Source: a virus. Taken from it: a DNA stretch of 64,000 bases. The notes under the pieces were generated by a model. That model made no database searches. It saw only the letters and a list, made by a program, of their open reading frames with translations, and was not told where the DNA came from. The stretch lies in the IMG/VR virus record IMGVR_UViG_3300037070_006409, positions 12,205 to 76,204 of that record, one strand, 5' to 3'. Of the stretch, positions 10,244 through 64,000 are shown piece by piece; the first letter of the stretch is position 1, and each line of letters begins with the position of its first letter. The translations under genes were made by a program, and so were the position numbers.

Positions 10244-13200
10244 ATGGCGGTTCGAGGATCTTTTGATCTGAACGACAAACCCGCCTCCGAGGCCCTCCGC
10301 AGCATCCGGCGCGAGGGGGCGCTCACCGAGCGCCAGATGCGCAGCCTCGGCGATGCAGTCGATGATGTGTTCTCGACGGCCAACCGGGAGGCAGCGCGGG
10401 CTTACGAGCGCGATCTGCGCTCCGTCGATCGCACCGCCGTTCGTAGCCTCGGCAACCTCCGCCGGGAGTGGCGCACCACCGAGCGCGAGGTCCTCTCCTC
10501 GGTCGCGAAGCAGGAGGCTGAGATCGGCAGCCTGGAGACCTCGCTGCGCAGTCTCGGAACCGTCGATGCTCGCCCGAACATCAACCTGCATGGCTTCGCC
10601 GAGGCCAACGCCCAGATCGACACCATCGAAGCTCGCCTGCGGTCGCTCGGTGCCGTCACCGCCAGGCCCAACGTCAACGTCTCGGGGGGCTGGCGACCGC
10701 CCGGCAGCTCCGGGGGCAGCCGCGGCGGCAGTGGCTTCGGCGGGCGGGGCCTCAATATCCCCTTCGCCGGCCGGATCCCCTGGCCCCTGGTCGGTGGTGC
10801 TCTCGCTGCCGCTCCGCCGCTCGTCGGTGGCGCCACGGGCCTGCTCGGCAGCGCCGCTTCGGCGACGCTCGGCCTCGGTGCCCTCGGCCTGACCGGCGGC
10901 GGTGTCGCCGCGGTCGGCGCTGGCACCGCGCTCCCCAGCACGATTATGGCCGCCAAGGGGATCTCGGCGGCAAGTAAAGCGTTCGAGAAGTACCAGCAGG
11001 AGGTCATCCAGTCCGGCCCCAATTCCGAAGCTGCACGCGTGGCCTTCCGCGAACTCAACATGGAGCTGCGCGACGCCCCGCGAGGCACGCGGCGCTTCCT
11101 CGCCTCCCGCCAGGCCCTCGGCCGGGAGTTCGCTGCGGCGACGCGACCGGGGCAGGCCTCCGTGGCGGCGATGGCTACCCGCGGGATCAACCTCGGGCGC
11201 CAGCTCACCCCGCTGACCGGCCAGCTCTCCAATCGCTTCCTTGGTGAGGCCCAGGGCCAGACGGACCAGTTCGCCGGCTTCCTCAACGACCGCCGCTCGC
11301 GCGACTTCTACCGCGCGATGAGCGCTGAGGCGACCGCCGACCTCAGCTCGATGGAGTCGATCTCCGAGAACGTCCTGGCGACGATGATGAACATCGCCCG
11401 CGCCGGGCGGCCCTTCTTCCACGAAGCCGTCGAGTTCGTGGACGACTGGACGGGTGGCTGGAGCGAGGGCACCCGCGACATTCACGACACTCGGCGCGAG
11501 CTGGGGCAGATGGTCGATGACCTCCGCGCCTGGGGCCACCTTGGCGGCGCCGGCTTCGACCTGATCCAGGATCTCTTCGGGGCTTCGCGCCAGCCCGGCA
11601 CCTCATTGGTCGAGAGCCTCACCGACCAGCTTCGCGAGTGGGACCGCTGGGTGGAACGCAACCCCGCCCAGGTCAGCCAGTTCTTCGAGGACTCGGCCGA
11701 AGGCACGGAAAAGATCGCTGGGGCGCTCTCGCGCATCACCGGGCTGCTGTGGCGGGTCAGCCGCCAGCTCACCCCGCTGCTCGAACAGGGCGCGAACTTC
11801 GTAGAACTCCTCGGCAACGCTGGCCTGCTGACGCCCGGCGGGCTGCCTCTGCTGCTCGGGGCTGGCGCTGGCGTGCGCGGGGCCTTCGGACGCGGGGGGG
11901 GTACGGCCCGTGGTGGTGCTGCTGGCGGTGGTGCCGGAGCGCCGATCATCCTTGGCGGTGGTGGCGCGGCGGCAGCGGGAGGCTTCGGCAGCCTCTTCGA
12001 TCGCGAGACCTATGGCCTCGCCCGTGGCTTCGGCCGCGGCCGTCTCGCCTCTACCGTTGCAGGACTCGGGGCGGGTTCGAGCGGGGCACGCGCGGCAGCG
12101 GGCGGCCGCAGCTTCGGTCGCAGCTTCGGTCCCTACGCCCTGCTAAGCGCTGGCCTCGGCGCCGCTGGAACCGAAGGCAACATCTGGGAGCGCCTCCAGG
12201 GCGGGATCAGCCAGGCCTCTCTCGGACTTGTCGCCCCACCCAAGACCCAGGCGCAGGAAATGGACGAGGGGATGCAGGAAGCCGCCCAGATCAGTGCTCG
12301 GCTCGGGCGGCGCTTCGGTGATGACCCGTCCGGCCTGACGCAGCAGATCCACGCCCTGCTGCGGCGCCGGGGAGAGGCGATGACCCCCCAGCCGCACGGC
12401 GGTCTGACCGGCTTCCTCACGACGAGCCTCAACCCCGCCGATGAATTCTTGACGCGGCCACGCTTCCTCTCCGACGAGGCGCGCCAGCGAGCGCGTGGAT
12501 TCACCGGCCAGATCGGCTCCCTCCGCGAGCAACGCGCCTCGGTGGTCTCTCAGTCCGCGCTCGGGGAGATCCAGGGTGCTTTCGGCATCCGAACCCGCCA
12601 CGGCGAGGACCCCGGCCAGGCCTTCGAGAAAGCCGCCTCCTCGATCGAGAGTCGTGCCGGGAGGATGAAGGGCCGCACGGGCCGTGAGTTCTCCCAGATG
12701 GGCCTCAACTGGGCGCGCTCGATGGCGCGCTCAAACCCGAAACTCAAGGGCGCTGTCGATGACCTCGCCCGCTCGATCGAAAACCGCCTCAACAAGACGG
12801 GCGAGAACGTCCGCATCATCAACGGCCGGATCGTGGACGTGTCGGCGAAGTCTTGGAAGAACGTCGCCGACCTGATCGGGACCCAGACCCAGCGGGCCTA
12901 CTCCGAAGCCAACGAGAACCTCACCGCCCTCGAAAAGCGAGCTTTCACGATTCTGCGTCAGATGGGCTACTCCCAGGGCGATGCGAAGGCCTTGGTCTAC
13001 GAAGCTCAGCACGGCCATCCCTCCCGCCAGCGCGGCCAGGAACAGGCGACTGCGCATCACTTCGGGCGCACCCTGCCGACCACAAGCAGCATGGACGGGC
13101 GCGGTCATGCGACCGGCGGCAGGCTCCCAATGCCGCGCAGCGGCTCTATGCACGACGTGCTTAGTCTCGGCGGCGGCAACATGGCAGCCGGCGGCGAGCT

Positions 13201-54865: not shown

Positions 54866-55894
54866 ATGAGCAAGGGGCGAGACAGCGAGAAGGAGCGCGA
54901 AGAAGCCCTCGAAGGTGCGCTCGATCAGATCGAGCGCGACCACGGCAGCGGGGCGGTAATGCGCCTCGGCACCGACGAGACGATCAAGGTGCCAGCGATC
55001 CCGACCGGCTCCCTCGCGCTCGATATGGCCCTCGGCATCGGTGGCTACCCCCGCGGGCGGATCGTGGAGATCTTCGGCCCCGAGTCCTCGGGCAAGACGA
55101 CGCTTATCTACCACGTCATCGCCCAGGCCCAGGCCCGCAAGGGCACCTGCGCCTTCATCGACACCGAGCACGCGATCGACCCGACCTACGCCCGAGCGAT
55201 CGGCGTGGACACCGACGCCCTGCTCGTCTCCCAGCCCGACTACGGCGAGCAGGCCCTCCAGATCGCCGACCGGCTCATCTCCTCCTCGGCGCTCGACGTG
55301 ATCGCGATCGACTCCGTGGCCGCACTCGTGCCGAAGGCCGAGCTGGACGGCCAGATCGGCGACACCACGGTCGGCCTCCAAGCTCGCTTGATGAGCCAGG
55401 CCATGCGCAAGCTCGCCGGCAACGTCAGCCGCTCGGGCACGATCGCCATCTTCACCAACCAGCTTCGTGAAAAGGTCGGCGTGCACTTCGGTAACCCCGA
55501 GACCCAACCCGGCGGCCGCGCGCTCAAGTTCTACTCCTCGCAGCGCCTCGACATCCGCCGCATCGAGACGCTCAGGGACGGCAGCGAGGCGGTCGCCTCT
55601 CGCGTCCGGGTCAAAGTCGTCAAGAACAAGGTCGCCGCCCCGCACCGCCAGGCCGAGTTCGACATCGAGTACGGCACCGGGGTCTCGCGGCAAGGGGAGC
55701 TGATCGACTACGGGATCGAGCAGGGCATCATCCGCAAGTCGGGGGCGTTCTTCTCCTACGGCGAGACACGGCTCGGCCAGGGTCGAGCCAACGCCAAGGT
55801 CTTCCTCGCCGAGAACACCGAGCTGGCCGCCGAGATCGAAACGCAGATCCGCAGCGCCCTAGACATCCCAACCTACGAACCGAGAGGAGTCTGA
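54866..55894 (+). CDS. recA: Recombinase RecA
   Basis: [88 protein letters not shown]. Confidence 0.98.
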
Positions 55895-55896
55895 GT

Positions 55897-56106
55897 TTGT
55901 CCGTCATCTCACCACCCGAACCGACCATCAGCGAGCGCGAGGTTGTGACCGCTGAGTGCCCCCACTGCGACGAGACGACCGTGCAGGTTGAAGGCGGCCA
56001 CGGCGTCGAAAACGATGCAGGCAACGGCAGTCGCGCGTGTCTCCAGTGCATCGCTGACGGCGGCACCTGCTGCTCCCTCGCTCCGCTCAACCGACAAGCT
56101 ATTTAG
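55897..56106 (+). CDS. Small zinc-finger protein; the true start may be internal
   Basis: CPHC and CLQC; a CACCACCCGA leader box at 55910-55919 lies inside the called ORF. Confidence 0.45.
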   Translation: MSVISPPEPTISEREVVTAECPHCDETTVQVEGGHGVENDAGNGSRACLQCIADGGTCCSLAPLNRQAI

Positions 56107-56158
56107 GTGGGCGGGACCTCGCGGGGTCGAGTAGTCTTCCCCGCCGAGGCTCGGTCGC

Positions 56159-56186
56159 AACGCCCCTGGATTTTCCGGGGGCGTTT
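56159..56186 (+). terminator. Terminator-like hairpin before the portal gene
   Basis: AACGCCCCTGGA...TCCGGGGGCGTT followed by T. Confidence 0.6.
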
Positions 56187-56234
56187 GCGTTCAAGGGACA
56201 CCGGGGTCCCCGCTAGCCGCTACCGTTCTCGCTG

Positions 56235-58289
56235 ATGGGCGTCGCCGACACCTTCCGCGAACGGCTGACCGGGGTCCTAGAGGATTGGACAGGCATAACC
56301 GTCGCTCCCGTCCACGAAGTCACTGGCCTCCGCGAGCAGGCCGAACACATGGGCTACTTCCTCGATGAAGTCGAGGACCTCGCCATCTCGGTGATGGACT
56401 ACTCCAACGGCCGCCCGCATGAGGTGCAGGCCGCCCACCGTCGCCGCCTCGCCCAGCAGTCGCGGATCGCCCTGATGCACGACCCCCTGGCCGGCGCCGA
56501 GGCCACGCTCCGATCCAACTTCGCCTTCGGCCGCGGGATCTCCAAGCCGCAGGCCAAGGACCCCGAGGTGCAGAAGATCATCGACGCCGCCTGGTCGAAC
56601 CCGAACAACGAACGCAAGCTGACCGGGTTCGAGGCTCAGCGACATCGCTCCAACGAGATGCTCACCACCGCCAACCTCTTCCCCACCCTCTACAGCGCTA
56701 ACGGCAAGATCAGGGTCGGCTTCCGGGACGCCGACGACGTGACCGATGTCGTCTGCGATCCCGAAGACGACGAGACTCCACTGTGGTACGTCGTCCGCAA
56801 GCGCAAGGCAGAGTGGGACTTCGGCCTCCACCAGTACAAGCCGGTGCTCGGCTACGAGCTGGAGAACGGCACCGAGAAGGTGTGGTACGTCCCCCACTGG
56901 CGCAACGTCGAGGACCTGGAACGCTGGTCGAAAGAGGTCGGCGAGCAGGCCCCGCCCCGTCCCGACAAGGGCCACATCCTCCCCGGCGCCGTCGAGCACT
57001 TCCGCATCAACCGGATCGGGCGCTCGCAGTTCGGGACGCCACCGTGGGCGCGCACGCTTCGCTTCTACACGGCGATCAACCAGCTCACCGAGGCCCAGGT
57101 GCAGATGCGCCAGGGTGCCGCCTCGATCATCGCCCAGCGGATGCGCCGCTCTGGCGGCGACCGGAAACTGATGAAAAACGTCTCCCAGGTGATGAACCGG
57201 GCTGGCGAGATCGGCTCCGCCACCTTCCGCCGGCAGACTCAGGGCGGGCCACCCGAACCCACCGGCCCCGGCACCCAACCCGGCCCGCGCGAAGCGGTGC
57301 CGCCGCCAGGAGCCGGGTCGTGGTGGGACGGCTATGAGCACGACAAGATCGAGGCCGTCAACCTCCGCTCGGGTGCCGGCGAGGCTCTCCAGGACGCCCA
57401 GATCGTTCGCGCACCGATCTCGGCCGCCTCGGGCTTCGGCCAGCATTACCTCGGCGACCCCTCGAACACCAACCTGGCGACGGCGACCACGCTGGAGCTG
57501 CCGACGCTCATGGAGGTCGGCGCCTGGCAGGAGACCTTCGAGCAGCTCTACTGCTGGTTCACCGACCGAGTGGTCGAGGCGGCGGTGCACGCTGGCCTCC
57601 TCGGCGGCATGATCTCCGAGGAAGAGACTCTCGATCCACGCAGCCTCGGCGAACTGCACATCCGCGAGGACCGCGAGGAGATGGAACAGCGCACCGGGCG
57701 CGACCTCTCCTACACCTTCCAGATGCCCTACCCCGGCCGACGCAACCTGCCGGACGTGACCTCGGCCGTCTCCGCCGTGCTGGTCACCCTCGACCCCGCC
57801 GGTCGCAATTGGGCGCTGCGGGAGCGGATGGCCGACTTCCTCTTCCGCCACGGCTTCGAGTCCGAGGACCCCGCCAGCGATGTCGAGGAAATCCTCAAGG
57901 AAGCTCGCCGCATCCAGAAGGAGGAAGACGCCAAGGCGCAGGCCATGTTCGCCGCGAGCGGTGGCGGTGGGTCTATCCCCCCGACGGGACCTCCCGAAGA
58001 AGACGGCGAAGGCTCCAAAGGAACCGAAGGCTCCAGCCAGTACGGCGAGCGACGCAAACGCACCCCGCCGACTCGCGATATGGGCGGCGGCCCGCGCACG
58101 AAAGAGGTGCTGCGAGAGGGCATCAGCGACCCGACCGAGTTCAACGACGCGATCACCGCGGCACTCATCGCCGACGCCCGCGAAGCCTGGCAGCAAGGCC
58201 TCACGGACCCGGCACTGCTGAGCCGCGGGCGTCCAACCAACGGCAACGGTGCCTCAACCTCGCCGCCAAGCTCGGCCGGCCCGCTCTAG
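56235..58289 (+). CDS. Portal protein
   Basis: DPLAG.......NF.FGRGI......VQ.IID..W.NP.N, FRINR, A.DA......I.A.SG...HYLGD....NLATAT..ELP; precedes a MuF-like gene. Confidence 0.75.
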   Translation: MGVADTFRERLTGVLEDWTGITVAPVHEVTGLREQAEHMGYFLDEVEDLAISVMDYSNGRPHEVQAAHRRRLAQQSRIALMHDPLAGAEATLRSNFAFGRGISKPQAKDPEVQKIIDAAWSNPNNERKLTGFEAQRHRSNEMLTTANLFPTLYSANGKIRVGFRDADDVTDVVCDPEDDETPLWYVVRKRKAEWDFGLHQYKPVLGYELENGTEKVWYVPHWRNVEDLERWSKEVGEQAPPRPDKGHILPGAVEHFRINRIGRSQFGTPPWARTLRFYTAINQLTEAQVQMRQGAASIIAQRMRRSGGDRKLMKNVSQVMNRAGEIGSATFRRQTQGGPPEPTGPGTQPGPREAVPPPGAGSWWDGYEHDKIEAVNLRSGAGEALQDAQIVRAPISAASGFGQHYLGDPSNTNLATATTLELPTLMEVGAWQETFEQLYCWFTDRVVEAAVHAGLLGGMISEEETLDPRSLGELHIREDREEMEQRTGRDLSYTFQMPYPGRRNLPDVTSAVSAVLVTLDPAGRNWALRERMADFLFRHGFESEDPASDVEEILKEARRIQKEEDAKAQAMFAASGGGGSIPPTGPPEEDGEGSKGTEGSSQYGERRKRTPPTRDMGGGPRTKEVLREGISDPTEFNDAITAALIADAREAWQQGLTDPALLSRGRPTNGNGASTSPPSSAGPL

Positions 58290-60516
58290 CGAACCGCCGC
58301 CAACGGCTGCGGCGCCGATCGGCGGAATCATCGCCGGGACGCCGAGCGCCGCAGCGGGCGCGGCTGCGCTGGCGACGGGAGCGAAGGCTCAGGCTTCGGT
58401 CGTCCAGAACACGATCAAGGCGGTGCTGGGGATGCTCGCCGCGATCGCGCTCCGGCGGACGAAGATCATCCGCGACCGCGCCGTCGCCGTTTACCCGATG
58501 GCCGACCTCGACCTCGCCATCGCCGAGGAGGACCGCCGCGAGATCGTCTTCCGCAAGCGGGTCGAGCAGCGGCTGCGCGCCGGCATGAAGGTCGCCATGC
58601 GCGCGAAGGACCCCTCAGCGCGCTCCGCGGCGATCGAGGCCCTGCTCAACCGCGAGCAGCGCTACGCCGAGATGCGCACGGCCGCGGCCGGCGAACGAGT
58701 CCTGGCCGCGGCGGAGTTGCAGGACCTGCGCACGCGCTCGCCCCAAGGCGCCTTCTGGGCGCTGGGGATGCGCCAGCGCCACACTCCCGATTCGGTCGGT
58801 CCTGGCATGGTGGTAGAGGGTCCCCCTCTCGAAGCAGCAGCACGTCGCTGGTTCGACGGCGAGCTAATCGAGATCGAGACCAAAGGCGGCGGACGCCTGT
58901 CCTTGACTCCCAATCACCCGGTACTCACCGTGAAAGGATGGGTCGCTGCGCGAGCGCTCGATAAAGGCGACGACCTGATCCGTCACCTGGCGGCTGGGGT
59001 GACCGCTTCGGCGCAGGATGACATAGATGACGTTCCACCCGTGATCGAGGAGATATTCGGTGCGCTTTCGGAGGTGAATCCGCTTGCGCGGGGAGTTATG
59101 CCAGTCCGAGCCGAGGACTTCCACGGCGACGGGCAGCACGGCTATGTCGAGGTTGTAGCTACCTACGGCGCGCTGGGGGAGCGGGTCGAAGCCGCGATCG
59201 CGCAGCAGCGCCAAGAGGGCGCCCTCGTTTGGAACGGCGTGGGACTGATGCAGCTCGGCGGTGAGGGACGCTCGGCAGCGAGCGCGATGACTATTGCCGC
59301 CATTGTGCTCGACTCCACGCAGCCTCACGCCAGCGGCCTTCAGGCGCCTCGTCAACGAGGACCTGGAGATTCCGGAGCTACGACTCAGGGCGAGGACAGA
59401 CTCGCCACCCAGGTAGGCCTCAACCACGTCGGCCGGTGCAGGTTCGACCTGGCTGCGGATTTCTACCCCGAGCCGTTCCAGGGCGTTAATGACCGTCTGG
59501 CCAGTGATCCCGTAGTCGCGGCCGAGCTTCAAGGCGGACTCGCCGGCCCGGTAGCGACTGACGAGATCATCGGCATTCGGCGGCGACCATACGCGGGCCA
59601 CGTCTATGACCTCCAGACCGTCGGGCGTTGGTTCACGGTAGACAGTCTAGTGGTGAGCAATTGCGTTTCGATGGCCGGTCGTTTCTGGCCCTGGGTAGTC
59701 CTCAACGAGGTCCACCCGCTGCTGCACGTCGGCTGCGGCTGCCGCCTCTTCTCCTACGGCGATGCCCTCGCGAAAGGGATGATGGCCGCCACCGACGTGA
59801 TGAGCAACCAGGCCGCGCTCCGGCTCGCCGCTCCGGTGATCCAGCACGTCCGCGATGAGAAGGCCGAGGCAGAGCGCAAGTACGGGCCGATGGCCGAGGA
59901 TGAAGCGGCCGCCACCGAGGAGCTGCTGATCCGCGAGGCGCTGCTGGACCGTGGTGGCGATGCTGACGCCCTGGCGGCGATGCCGCTCTCGTGCGACCCA
60001 CTGCCAGCACCGCTCGGCGTGATCGCCGAGGCCGAAGAGCAGACCGGAGCGATGGTCGCACTGTTTCCAGATCGGAAACTGTCGAAGAAGCTGGCACTGC
60101 CCGGCGGCGATCCTCCCGAGCAGCTCCACGTCACCCTCGCCTTCCTCGGCAAGGCCGCCGACCTGGACTTCGACAAGGCCCGCGCCGCCGTCGAGGCCTG
60201 GGCCAAGAAGACGCCGCCGCTCTCCGGCGAGCTGTCGGGCATCGGCCACTTCGACCTCGGTCGCGGGGAGAAGGTCACCTACCGCTCCGTCGATCTCCCC
60301 GAGCTGCCGACACCGCGCGAGGGCCTCATCGCCGACCTCGACAAGGCGGGCGTGCCACCGCGCCGCGACCACGGATTTTCCCCCCGCATGACGATCGACA
60401 GCCGGATGCGCCGGCCCGAGGTGAAGAAACAGCCGATCACCTTCGCTGAGGTCACCCTCGCCTGGGGAGGGGAGCGGCATCCCTTCCCGCTCCGTGGGGG
60501 AAAGAAATCCACCTGA
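58249..60516 (+). CDS. MuF/SPP1 gp7-like minor head protein containing an intein and a C-terminal 2H phosphoesterase domain; start uncertain
   Basis: Spliced exteins RHTPD|CVSMAGRFW...HPLLHVGCGCRL (MuF Cys/His motif). The C-terminus has HVTLAFLG...FSPRMT (LigT/2'-5' RNA ligase-like). Confidence 0.72.
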   Translation: MPQPRRQARPARSSEPPPTAAAPIGGIIAGTPSAAAGAAALATGAKAQASVVQNTIKAVLGMLAAIALRRTKIIRDRAVAVYPMADLDLAIAEEDRREIVFRKRVEQRLRAGMKVAMRAKDPSARSAAIEALLNREQRYAEMRTAAAGERVLAAAELQDLRTRSPQGAFWALGMRQRHTPDSVGPGMVVEGPPLEAAARRWFDGELIEIETKGGGRLSLTPNHPVLTVKGWVAARALDKGDDLIRHLAAGVTASAQDDIDDVPPVIEEIFGALSEVNPLARGVMPVRAEDFHGDGQHGYVEVVATYGALGERVEAAIAQQRQEGALVWNGVGLMQLGGEGRSAASAMTIAAIVLDSTQPHASGLQAPRQRGPGDSGATTQGEDRLATQVGLNHVGRCRFDLAADFYPEPFQGVNDRLASDPVVAAELQGGLAGPVATDEIIGIRRRPYAGHVYDLQTVGRWFTVDSLVVSNCVSMAGRFWPWVVLNEVHPLLHVGCGCRLFSYGDALAKGMMAATDVMSNQAALRLAAPVIQHVRDEKAEAERKYGPMAEDEAAATEELLIREALLDRGGDADALAAMPLSCDPLPAPLGVIAEAEEQTGAMVALFPDRKLSKKLALPGGDPPEQLHVTLAFLGKAADLDFDKARAAVEAWAKKTPPLSGELSGIGHFDLGRGEKVTYRSVDLPELPTPREGLIADLDKAGVPPRRDHGFSPRMTIDSRMRRPEVKKQPITFAEVTLAWGGERHPFPLRGGKKST
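58792..59661 (+). mobile_element. Intein (290 aa) starting with Ser
   Basis: SVGPGMVV...block B LTPNHPVLTVKGWVAARALDKGD, block F GHVYDLQT, end LVVSN followed by +1 Cys. Confidence 0.88.
58864..59601 (-). CDS. Tandem HTH + DUF559/Vsr-like endonuclease nested antisense inside the intein
   Basis: YRAGESALKLGRDYGIT..TV...L and YLGGES..L...GIS..SL..RL HTHs; PQRAVGSYNLDIA...VEVLGSDWH...L...GWNV nuclease. GGAGG lies 8 nt upstream of the GTG start. Confidence 0.85.
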   Translation of the reverse strand: MARVWSPPNADDLVSRYRAGESALKLGRDYGITGQTVINALERLGVEIRSQVEPAPADVVEAYLGGESVLALSRSSGISRSSLTRRLKAAGVRLRGVEHNGGNSHRARCRASLTAELHQSHAVPNEGALLALLRDRGFDPLPQRAVGSYNLDIAVLPVAVEVLGSDWHNSPRKRIHLRKRTEYLLDHGWNVIYVILRRSGHPSRQVTDQVVAFIERSRSDPSFHGEYRVIGSQGQASAAFGLDLD

Positions 60517-60549
60517 CCCCCCGGTCTCCCTGCTTTTCGCTCCTCCCTC

Positions 60550-60598
60550 GGTAAGGTTCTTACCACCGAGCTGCTATACTCTTCCCAGCACCACCCGA
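60550..60598 (+). promoter_or_regulatory. GGTAAG-GTT-CTTACC, TATACT -10 hexamer and CACCACCCGA box
   Basis: TGC-TATACT at 60575-60580; GGAGGG RBS before ATG 60627. Confidence 0.75.
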
Positions 60599-60626
60599 AC
60601 ACGACTTCCTGACACTGGAGGGACCG

Positions 60627-62618
60627 ATGAAGGCAGCAGAGATCAACGTCGGCGACGTGGTAGCCGTCACCGAAGGCACAAGTCGCTGGGATCGCAACAC
60701 CGACCGGGTGACGAAGGCCGAGGTGCTCACCGTCCCGGAGGATGGTTGCGTGAGCGTGAGGCTCTTGGAGGAGCCGAAGACCGTGTTGGGCCGTCGAGGC
60801 TGGGGCACACAAAAGCCCTACAAGAAAGGTGACAGGGCACGGATAAAGACGAGCTGGCTGTGGGTGCCTTGGTCAGAGATCGCGGTGATGGTCAAGGCCG
60901 ACCTCGAGGCCACCCAGCGCAGCAGGGAGGCAGAGGCCGAGCGCGAAGAGATGCGCGTCGCCCTCCAGGCTCGCGTTGACGCCGCCATCGGTACCGACAA
61001 TTCTCAGCTTTCGTGGGGCTGGATCGGCGGCGTGACTATCTCGATCGAGGATCTCGAAGCGCTGCTCAATCGAGCGGAGCGAATGAAAAACGAATGAAAC
61101 CCGAACCCGACTTCCTGATGGAGGCGAAGATGAATCGTCCGATGCCCGAGTTGATTGTCGCCAAGCGACTGACCGAAACCGAGCGCGAGCAACTGGTCGA
61201 GCGCGTCGTCGCTGCCAACCCGCGGTTGCGAGGCGCCGAGGTCGCAGACATCCTCGACATCTTCGCCGACGGCGACGTAATGATCGACGTGACCGAACGC
61301 TTCTACGAAGAGCACGGAGATGACCTACCCGGTGGCGAGCGCTGCGATGAGCGTCCCTTGGCTGTCATCGCTGCTGCGATCCTCCAGCCCGACGATATGC
61401 GGCCGTTGGTCGAGCGACTCTGCCAAGCCGATGTCTGACCGCCGCCGCCGCGCTCAGGCCCACGCCCGCCGCGCCCACTTCTGCACCTGCGGGGCGATCG
61501 TCCGAGGCAACGGCGCCAAGTACCAGCACCGCGAGATGCACAACCGAGCTGGCGACGGTCACCGCTACGTCACGACGGAAGACTTCGGCCGTCGGTTCCC
61601 AGGATGGCGCGGTGGTCCGCAGGAGCGACAAATCCCCGGCCCGGCACCTCGGGAGTGCGAGCAGGGATGCCGCCGCGTGGTCGCTGCCGGCTCGGCCTAC
61701 TGCTGCGACGGCTGCGCGACGACCGAAGGGCGCCACCACTCCGAGGTCTGCCCGAAGGACGGGGAGCCAGCCCGGTGAGCGACGCTATGGCCGAGGTCTA
61801 CTTGCCGGACGGCACGATCGCGGGCTGCACGGTCTACCAAGGCTCCTCCGACAGCATCTCGCCCGCGATCGTCCCTAGCCGGGCCTTCGATTGGCAGGGT
61901 GGCGGTTGGGATCAGCTCAGAGCTTGTCAGGGTGCGGGTCACTCTGGGGAGCCGTGCATCATCTACTCGACCTATGCAGAGCCAGGCTGCCACTGGCCGG
62001 GATTGGTGTGCTTGGAGTGCAATGTGGTGATCGGGCCACTGTCACCGTTCGGGTCAGATGAAGGCGGCGAGTGTGACCCTGGACCCGAACACTTCGAGGG
62101 GCATCCGTTCCCATGAGCAAGCCACGACCACTCAGTCCGACGATGAAGAAGATCATCGAGGTCCTGCGTTGGCACGACGGCGGCCCGATGACCCCGGCCG
62201 ACATCGGCTCGCACGTCTTCCCGAACTACTACGACAACCCGGTCATCGCCAACGGCCACGGCGGCAAGGGCGGCTGCTACACGGTGATGTCGCCCGCCCA
62301 GAAGGTCATCTCGCCGATCCGGTCGCTGGAGACCCGTGGGCTGATCCACTTCGCTCGCCGCCCCGACGGACTGAGTGGAACCGCCTACCGGCTCACGAAA
62401 CTCGGATGGCAGCGGTGACGTTGCGTGACCTGCTCAAGAACCAAGGCATCGACCCGAACGCTCTACTCCGCCAGCACGTCGGGCAACCGCTCACCGACGG
62501 TGAAGGCATCACTGCTCACCTCGCCGACGGCCTGCTCGACCTCCACATCGTCTTCGCAGTGAAAAACGACAAACCCGAGAAGCCGGAGAAACCGGCGAGG
62601 AGGAAACGCAAACGATGA
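60627..62618 (+). other. Operon of hypothetical ORFs (60627-61097, 61130-61438, 61431-61778, 61775-62116, 62113-62418 winged-HTH-like, 62415-62618)
   Basis: Coupled overlaps and RBSs; the 35-bp leader repeat precedes 61130. Confidence 0.55.
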
Positions 62619-64000
62619 GTGAAGAGACCAACGGCACCCTCGCCGACGGAGTGGCGATCCGAGAGGACCGGCTACTCCCGGAAGGCACCTGGCGAATCGA
62701 GCGACCCGGCGGCTCCGCGGTCGAGACCTTCAACCACGGCCGCGCCACGGGCCGCGACACCCCCAGCCGGCCCTTCAACATCCACACCGTCGCCGCCGAG
62801 ATCATCGAGCACGGCAACCGCTGCTTCGCCCTCGCCCCCGACATCTACTTGCTCGGGCACGAGGTGATGGAGGAGTTGACGAAGCGCCCCGCCGAGATGG
62901 CCGAGATGGGCCGGCCGCTGTGGAACGGCATGATCGCCAGCACCCACGTCGCCACCATGAAGCAGCTCGACGGGACGCAATGGCTCATCGACGGCACTCC
63001 CCAGGACGACCTCGACCCGCGGGCGCTCGGGGATGCAATCTTCAAGGGCGCCGACGAGATCCGGGTCCCGGAGTCCTACTCCCCGATCCTCACCGCCCTG
63101 GCCGAGACGCCGGAGGTCGAAATGGTGCTGACCGCGGAGAAGCTCATGGACCTCGCCCCTGAGCTGGAGCGGATCAGGAAGCGGGTAGTCCGACCGGAGA
63201 GCAAGCCCGAGGACAAGCTCTACATCGAGACCACGCTCGGCGACGCGGAGGCGTTCCTCGGCCCCGCCGACGATCTGCGCGAGGCATCCATCGACGGAGC
63301 CAATGGCGCGCTGCTCCAGGCCGTCGCCGAAGCGGTGAAGGCCCACCGGGAAGGCTGGCGAGAGCTGCCCCCCACGATCGTGCGCGCACAGATCTCCGAG
63401 GTGACCTCTCCTAGCGAGGAGCGTTTCATGGTCTCGGTGCGCGTTGACGATGCTTATCCGATCATCGGATTCCTTCAAGAAGTCACTCGGCGCAAGGCCT
63501 TCCCGAGGCCTGTCGGCGAGTTGCTGGAAGACCTCGAAGAGCTACGGAAAGGGACAGCAGCAGGCCTCGCCAGCGCGATCGCCGAGCGCCGGAGCGATGA
63601 GGAGTTCATGGAGCGGCTACAGCGCAGCGTCGAGGAGAACGCCGAGGTGCTCGATCGTCTCGCTGGCCCGCGCTTTCCCTTCCCCATAGGGGCCAGGGTC
63701 CGCATCAAGCGCACGGGGGAGGGTCCCTTCACGGTGATGCGTAGCCGCAAGGTGGACCGTGCCGCCGAGGAGCCGCGGGAGCGGTACTACACGCTGATGC
63801 TCAACGGGCACATCATCGGCCACTACCCGGAGAGCGAACTGGTCTGGGCGGAGCCGCCGATGACGGGGCAGACAGCCGCCGGGATGATGCGGGCGATCGC
63901 CGAGCGCTTCGGCGTCAGCATCGGCTCGGGGCCAGCCTCGACCATGCACTACGGCGGGGCGGCCTGCGACCTCAAGCCCGGCCAGCCCACCGACAGCGCC
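62615..64000 (+). CDS. Hypothetical protein of at least 462 aa, 3'-truncated by the window
   Basis: Read manually: ATG 62615 (overlapping the upstream TGA) stays open to the last base. It is missing from the supplied ORF track because no stop codon is present. Confidence 0.7.
   Translation, partial: MSEETNGTLADGVAIREDRLLPEGTWRIERPGGSAVETFNHGRATGRDTPSRPFNIHTVAAEIIEHGNRCFALAPDIYLLGHEVMEELTKRPAEMAEMGRPLWNGMIASTHVATMKQLDGTQWLIDGTPQDDLDPRALGDAIFKGADEIRVPESYSPILTALAETPEVEMVLTAEKLMDLAPELERIRKRVVRPESKPEDKLYIETTLGDAEAFLGPADDLREASIDGANGALLQAVAEAVKAHREGWRELPPTIVRAQISEVTSPSEERFMVSVRVDDAYPIIGFLQEVTRRKAFPRPVGELLEDLEELRKGTAAGLASAIAERRSDEEFMERLQRSVEENAEVLDRLAGPRFPFPIGARVRIKRTGEGPFTVMRSRKVDRAAEEPRERYYTLMLNGHIIGHYPESELVWAEPPMTGQTAAGMMRAIAERFGVSIGSGPASTMHYGGAACDLKPGQPTDSA

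Follow-up and report, generated by a model that had tools for sequence, protein, structure and literature searches.

Does a 2H phosphoesterase domain carried on a phage head protein still work as an enzyme when the second of its two catalytic histidines has been replaced by arginine, or is it a relic, or something put to another use? This question is raised by a 64,000-nucleotide stretch of viral DNA, hereafter the window (positions 12,205 to 76,204 of the IMG/VR record IMGVR_UViG_3300037070_006409), in which the open reading frame (ORF) after the portal gene, P0001, encodes a 755-amino-acid protein ending in such a domain. The record comes from a soil metagenome and is linear, 78.9 kb long and about 79% complete, with a guanine-plus-cytosine (GC) content of about 67%. 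The 2H fold has two beta-sheet lobes around a cleft, and in 2H enzymes the two histidines act as general acid and general base. The superfamily, which corresponds to a Pfam clan including PF13563 and PF02834, was reportedly described by Mazumder and colleagues in 2002. The natural His-to-Arg active-site allele found here, Arg713, is unique among the approximately 175 homologues examined, and it is the only particular feature of the finding.

Results

The 2H domain and its second motif

The preliminary description of this locus, made from the letters alone, had placed a 2H domain in the C-terminal ~150 amino acids of the protein (60020–60516), with HVTL as the first motif and FSPRMT in place of the expected PHxT. 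Both observations held up. The C-terminal part of P0001 matched PF13563 with 33.5 bits (cut-off 27; 37.2 bits when that part was searched alone) and PF02834 with 27.5 bits (cut-off 23.3). An AlphaFold model built on alignment A1, which consists of 86 aligned homologues, reached a predicted local distance difference test score (pLDDT) of 93.1 and a predicted template modelling (TM) score of 0.86, and the folded extent that it gives, amino acids 600–747, lies inside the region first delimited. The elements of the domain are the following.

60046–60489, + strand: 2H phosphoesterase domain, LigT/ThpR-like, amino acids 600–747 (Pfam, AlphaFold, Foldseek)
60127–60138, + strand: HVTL of motif 1 (L-H627-V-T-L), intact; His and Thr invariant in alignment A1
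60379–60396, + strand: S to I of motif 2 (F-S-P-R713-M-T-I; sequence and alignments), family consensus T-P-H-M-T-L
60385–60387, + strand: codon CGC for Arg713, at the position of the second catalytic His; CAC in relatives

When the A1 profile was compared with the PDB, the best match was 5h7e (expectation value, E, 1.2e-10), followed by 1vdx and 1iuh, with Escherichia coli LigT at 1e-3; the leading LigT/ThpR matches span E 1e-10 to 1e-8. In the profile alignment to these solved LigT/ThpR enzymes, residue 713 falls on their second catalytic His. A Foldseek search of the PDB with the 2H model returned 1iuh, 5h7e and E. coli LigT at the top (E 1e-8 to 1e-6, TM 0.6–0.7); there were 50 matches at E<=1e-3 and, among the matches listed, all were 2H-fold proteins. 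By profile and fold, the domain is nearest to the LigT/ThpR RNA 2',3'-cyclic phosphodiesterases. The best matches among predicted viral structures were Gordonia and Mycobacterium phage proteins annotated as 'RNA ligase', structural or capsid-morphogenesis proteins, and the domain also matches PHROGs labelled 'RNA ligase'. A search of the record (78.9 kb, about 79% complete) for the RNA ligase families PF09414 and PF09511 and for RtcB (PF01139) gave no match, and 'RNA ligase' is therefore taken as a database label only.

Thirty-three of the 38 columns conserved at 85% or more are retained by the domain, and three of the five departures lie in motif 2. A Tyr-to-Ser change close to Arg713, at position 718, is not special, since this position is variable across the orthologue group. 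Shared descent and fold make the domain a homologue of the 2H superfamily, but its second H-x-T/S motif reads R713-M-T715 and sets it apart from members with a canonical active site.

The arginine codon in soil samples and among homologues

Logan contigs from four soil runs were compared over positions 58200–60700 of the window. In all four runs the contigs covering codon 713 agreed with the window throughout and showed no alternative letters, at depths of 138.8x (X1, a possible source sample), 6.7x (X4), 4.4x (X5) and 2.7x (X6), and a separate Joint Genome Institute (JGI) contig, L004 (1,840 nt, sample 3300035077), was 100% identical to it. CGC is the consensus in every sample holding the phage. 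The preliminary description had allowed that the Arg might be a sequence error, and a single-base difference in a metagenome-assembled record does invite the thought that the true codon is CAC. However, Arg713 is real because the four soil runs and the JGI contig carry the identical codon over 60385–60387, leaving practically no room for an error of sequencing or assembly. The four runs are soil metagenomes from 2020, probably from one campaign, and they sample one clonal phage rather than independent evolutionary events. Contigs hide minority alleles, and that no CAC was seen in the Logan contigs is not evidence that none exists.

An exhaustive phmmer search with the 2H domain gave 3083 representative clusters at E<=1e-3, with E values down to 1e-65. 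The motif-2 His was present in 149/149 non-self representatives (the best 149 of the 3083), all of which also had the motif-1 His and Thr, and the only Arg among the representatives belonged to this phage's own sequence. His likewise occupies the motif-2 column in the 85 other rows of alignment A1, and overall it was seen there in 177 homologues. A second search provided an orthologue set of 28 proteins of 418–578 amino acids with the same architecture and 59–76% identity in the 2H domain, and the motif-2 His was found in 28/28 of them. Checking homologues for His versus Arg, as the preliminary description had proposed, gave a uniform answer. This His is encoded by CAC in the orthologue P0003 and in 62 of 80 viral loci; these loci were picked by the pattern HG[FY][TSA]PH[MIL]T, which itself contains His, and served for codon usage only and not for the His counts. 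Since relatives use CAC, the CGC codon is one transition away.

With the tree fixed and the branch lengths of the two parts of the protein fitted separately, the terminal-branch ratio of the 2H part to the N-terminal part was 1.05 for this phage. This value lies in the middle of the distribution of the orthologues, which means that the 2H domain has not gone through a long period of free drift. A diversity-generating retroelement was considered as a source of the A-to-G change and was discarded; no template-like repeat of the domain DNA is present in the window.

The head protein and its putative intein

The remainder of P0001 and the gene upstream of it are composed as follows.

56235–58289, + strand: portal gene (phrog_10963 portal protein, E 1.3e-15), adjoining the head-protein ORF upstream
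58249–60516, + strand: head-protein ORF P0001, 755 amino acids by translation; MuF-like part, putative intein and C-terminal 2H domain
58249–58791, + strand: putative N-extein, amino acids 1–181, ending in ...FWALGMRQRHTPD, which matches the end of the MuF signature; 59% identity to amino acids 1–183 of the intein-less P0003
58792–59661, + strand: putative intein, Ser182–Asn471, 290 amino acids, with Cys472 as the +1 residue; defined by alignment to P0003
58864–59601, − strand: ORF of 245 amino acids nested in the putative intein on the opposite strand; in the ORF list, a gene call on the JGI contig L004, weak match to PF18741 (MTES_1575)
59662–60045, + strand: putative C-extein, amino acids 472–599; a CVSMAGRFWPW...HPLLHVGCGCRL block and then a helical Ala/Glu-rich linker; motifs kept in 28/28 orthologues

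The 3' end of the portal gene and the start of the head-protein ORF overlap by 41 nt. The GTG start of P0001 is backed by P0003, which begins MPQPRRQA against VPQPRRQA in P0001. P0003 aligns to amino acids 1–183 and 471–750 of P0001 and leaves the insertion between them, which the preliminary description had passed over. The insertion is missing from 28/28 orthologues, which read through HTPD/C (the slash marks the insertion point). It is 27–28% identical to inteins carried by the MuF proteins of two phages, Snoke (E. coli) and Sedona (Gordonia), has a partial match to PF14890 (31.4 bits, below the cut-off), and the GC fraction falls to 0.63–0.67 across it, lower than in the flanks. As expected of an intein, the 290 amino acids begin with a nucleophile, end in Asn and are followed by Cys; the penultimate residue is Ser, not His. 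Splicing is predicted, and the head protein would be about 465 amino acids long once the intein is out.

The preliminary description had called this protein a MuF-like head protein fused to a 2H domain. The C-terminal 2H domain on a post-portal head protein was borne out, while the MuF part of the claim found no direct Pfam or PHROG match and is supported on indirect grounds. PF04233 had no match at E<=5 in either extein, at E<=0.01 in the intein-less orthologues P0003, P0005 and P0011, or at E<=10 anywhere in the record, and no MuF PHROG was matched by the separate exteins or by the N-terminal parts of orthologues. The AlphaFold model of an orthologue N-terminal part (pLDDT 86) gave nothing at E<=1e-3 in a Foldseek search of BFVD, and VIA-align against PDB representatives gave generic helical bundles only. 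The Snoke and Sedona inteins sit at position ~107 of 112 of the PF04233 profile (HPN/C), which aligns with HTPD/C here, and about 60 residues of the N-extein upstream of the intein also align with those MuF proteins, amino acids 121–181 of P0001 aligning to the PF04233-positive part of the Snoke protein. In the protein Atlas, PF04233 was present in 26 of the 30 named feature neighbours (neighbour clusters), and the weak Foldseek matches of the orthologue N-terminal part (all E>0.01) were mostly MuF or head-morphogenesis proteins. Together with the position after the portal gene, the intein site, the extein alignment, the Atlas and the weak Foldseek matches favour a divergent MuF protein. By analogy with MuF/gp7 proteins, the head protein may be packaged in the virion.

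Directly after the MuF signature, the CVSMAGRFWPW...HPLLHVGCGCRL block (59662–59800, amino acids 472–517) has invariant C, W, W, H, G, C and C in 28/28 orthologues, and looks like a small Cys/His metal-binding knuckle. In the linker that joins the 2H domain to the MuF-like part, a single X4 contig of low depth (2.0 of 8.7) lacks three bases at 59927; this in-frame indel, possibly from a closely related strain, was the sole population difference seen over 58200–60700. About 340 nt upstream of the portal gene there is a full-length RecA (54866–55894, + strand; PF00154, 417 bits, plus RecA_C). Downstream, 110 nt (60517–60626) separate the head-protein stop from the next ORF (60627–61097, no family match), and consensus scans of these 110 nt detected no promoter-like or terminator-like sites. 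A megablast comparison of positions 56000–64000 with deposited phage genomes gave no match.

Related domains in head proteins and polyvalent proteins

The fusion of a 2H domain to a MuF or portal protein is not new. Iyer, Burroughs, Anand, de Souza and Aravind (2017, J Bacteriol, PMC5512222) described 2H domains of 'polyvalent proteins' that are fused to MuF or portal modules and come without ligase partners, and they proposed that these domains act as RNases or degrade 2'-5' or cyclic nucleotide immune signals. Such fusions are also common in actinophages. A tblastn search located the 2H domain in 341 deposited actinophage genomes, inside head-gene blocks, where the names 'RNA ligase' and 'protease' given to the 2H genes are database labels. 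Relatives of the domain are fused to PF04233 or PF06074. The long multidomain metagenomic protein P0020 has the order portal-2H-MuF, P0024 the order MuF-2H-Zeta toxin-ADP-ribosyltransferase, P0009 carries a NUDIX domain, and P0018 has an LPD1 match below the Pfam cut-off. A literature search retrieved no experimental test of the head-associated or polyvalent 2H class, no paper on LigT and cyclic oligoadenylate in phages, and none on the phosphodiesterase of Burkholderia phage BCSR5 (PDB 9q2y/9q2g), a mid-rank fold match of the domain.

In two further long polyvalent proteins from metagenomes, P0006 (amino acids 32–304) and P0007 (amino acids 335–610), the 2H domain is followed directly by Tad3 (PF25185, a type I Thoeris inhibitor; E 1e-30 to 1e-34). 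If this pairing proves fixed, it would tie this 2H class to anti-Thoeris counter-defence.

Discussion

The consequence of the Arg713 substitution can be judged from 2H enzymes in which the same position was altered. Changing the second-motif His to Arg is the standard way to disable such an enzyme; it inactivates ns2 of murine hepatitis virus (MHV; H126R) and AKAP7 (H185R), and the 2',5'-phosphodiesterase function is lost (Gusho et al. 2014, PMC4161237). The knock-out of the pigeonpox phosphodiesterase (PDE) is H72A/H167R, and both His are near-universal in viral LigT-like PDEs (PMC11410667). Acb1 H44A/H113A is also inactive (PMC9117128). Because the published His-to-Arg knock-outs are inactive, loss of catalysis is the default reading here.

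We propose that the gene after the portal gene encodes a MuF-like internal head protein from which the intein would splice out. The 2H domain would be an optional 'cargo' enzyme of the kind found joined to MuF, portal or protease modules in many actinophages and polyvalent proteins. In the family at large, the enzyme would presumably be packed in the capsid, and its targets soon after infection begins would be either RNA ends (2',3'-cyclic or 2'-5') or nucleotide immune signals. In this phage the second catalytic His would have been swapped for Arg by one transition, A to G (CAC to CGC), and Arg713 would most likely abolish acid-base catalysis while the domain stays folded and inactive. We consider it fairly probable that Arg713 marks a loss-of-function allele, tolerated and probably of fairly recent origin, of an accessory capsid-cargo domain that the phage can spare, and not a new function.

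Several considerations weigh against this explanation. The loss of catalysis is carried over from other 2H enzymes. The unaccelerated divergence of the domain and the clonal spread of the phage through at least four soil samples, with high abundance, would be explained just as well by a non-catalytic function that has been retained. A CAC subpopulation may exist behind contigs that hide minority alleles. Finally, virion packaging and MuF identity stand on indirect grounds, with no PF04233 match and no Foldseek match at E<=1e-3.

The retained non-catalytic function might be that of a binder, in which the Arg form, maintained by selection, retains the substrate pocket and acts as a sponge or decoy that captures an immune nucleotide signal or an RNA end, or serves as an RNA-binding module. 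The domain has kept its fold and 33 of its 38 conserved positions, its sequence diverges no faster than the rest of the protein, its Arg form was the sole allele seen across the four runs, one of them at 139x, and the Arg could still contact phosphate; in addition, Iyer et al. propose an RNA-binding role for the inactive PBECR domain in the MuF protein of Mu. However, with a single lineage and 0 of ~175 homologues sharing the Arg, nothing points to a clade of binders kept by selection. The few head-packaged copies per virion would probably make a poor stoichiometric sponge, and the pocket has no compensating changes beyond I716 and S718, of which position 718 varies across orthologues anyway. 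We regard a binder as unlikely, although both it and a decayed allele are compatible with the present data, with loss of catalysis kept as the default. A more specific form, in which the phage keeps a 'disarmed' 2H enzyme so that the capsid delivers a trap with high affinity for a cleaved RNA end or an immune nucleotide signal, is more doubtful still; if true, it would be an enzyme-to-sponge conversion caught at the stage of a single substitution.

Continued activity is an equally doubtful prospect. Arg713 or His708 might stand in as the acid-base catalyst, perhaps with a changed dependence on substrate or pH, given that motif 1 (His627/Thr629) and Thr715 are intact and that His708, in DHGF and five residues upstream of position 713, is conserved in 96% of the family. 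Nevertheless, His708 is equally conserved where His713 is present and so is not a replacement for it, Arg is in general a poor acid or base at physiological pH, and His-to-Arg at the same position abolishes the activity of ns2 and AKAP7. It is also improbable that the domain has a structural role in head assembly, as a scaffold or targeting module, such that the loss of catalysis is immaterial to the phage. Homologous domains do form part of polyproteins with protease, scaffold, MuF and portal modules, and 'capsid maturation protease' is a frequent annotation for them, but both catalytic His are invariant over ~175 diverse homologues, which argues that catalysis is what selection maintains in the family, and the domain is also found as a gene of its own and in polyvalent proteins that do not belong to the head.

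The 2H phosphoesterases packaged in phage heads form a widespread class whose members are presumed to act in counter-defence or on RNA ends. In this phage a natural active-site knock-out stands beside close His-bearing orthologues (59–76% identity), a convenient matched pair for biochemistry, through which the substrate and the roles of catalysis versus binding could be approached. Otherwise the finding amounts to one point substitution in one uncultivated soil phage and leaves knowledge of the family unchanged.

Comparison with known systems

The LigT/ThpR enzymes (Thermus TT0787, 1iuh; Deinococcus drCPDase, 5h7e; E. coli LigT, 5ldi/4qak; Pyrococcus PH0099, 1vdx) share the HxT...HxT layout with the family consensus. 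They differ from the domain described here in being standalone cellular enzymes, at 16–22% identity, whereas here the domain forms the C-terminal part of a head protein and has RxT as motif 2. The preliminary description had singled out the phage anti-CBASS nuclease Acb1 (T4 gp57B and Erwinia phage FBB1, 7t26/7t27; Hobbs et al. 2022, PMC9117128), with which the domain shares the 2H fold and which has an HxT/HxT tetrad and a counter-defence setting. This specific link was not sustained, the LigT/ThpR enzymes being nearer (profile E 1e-10, Foldseek E 1e-8): Acb1 (7t27) is only a distant fold relative, at Foldseek rank 31 with E 1.3e-4, TM 0.47 and 13% identity. It is also a small standalone protein with a C-terminal lid, unlike the fused head-protein domain. 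MHV ns2 H126R and AKAP7 H185R carry the same substitution, Arg for the second 2H-motif His, but they were engineered in the laboratory, in eukaryotic or viral 2',5'-PDEs, whereas Arg713 is a natural allele of a phage LigT-like domain.

Among phages, the head-region 2H genes of actinophages such as Maih and Laroye encode domains 30–35% identical to this one, with canonical HVTL...PH[VI]T motifs where P0001 has Arg. In gp11 of Streptomyces phage Maih, a MuF-2H-protease fusion, the 2H domain comes directly after the MuF module as in P0001, whereas Arthrobacter phage Laroye encodes it in a gene of its own, gp18, after the protease, unlike the fusion here. The class of Iyer et al. (2017, PMC5512222) is the same family with the same MuF-then-2H order, and here too the record holds no RNA ligase partner. 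P0001 differs from that class by the Arg in its second motif and by a MuF-like part that is interrupted by an intein and too divergent for PF04233.

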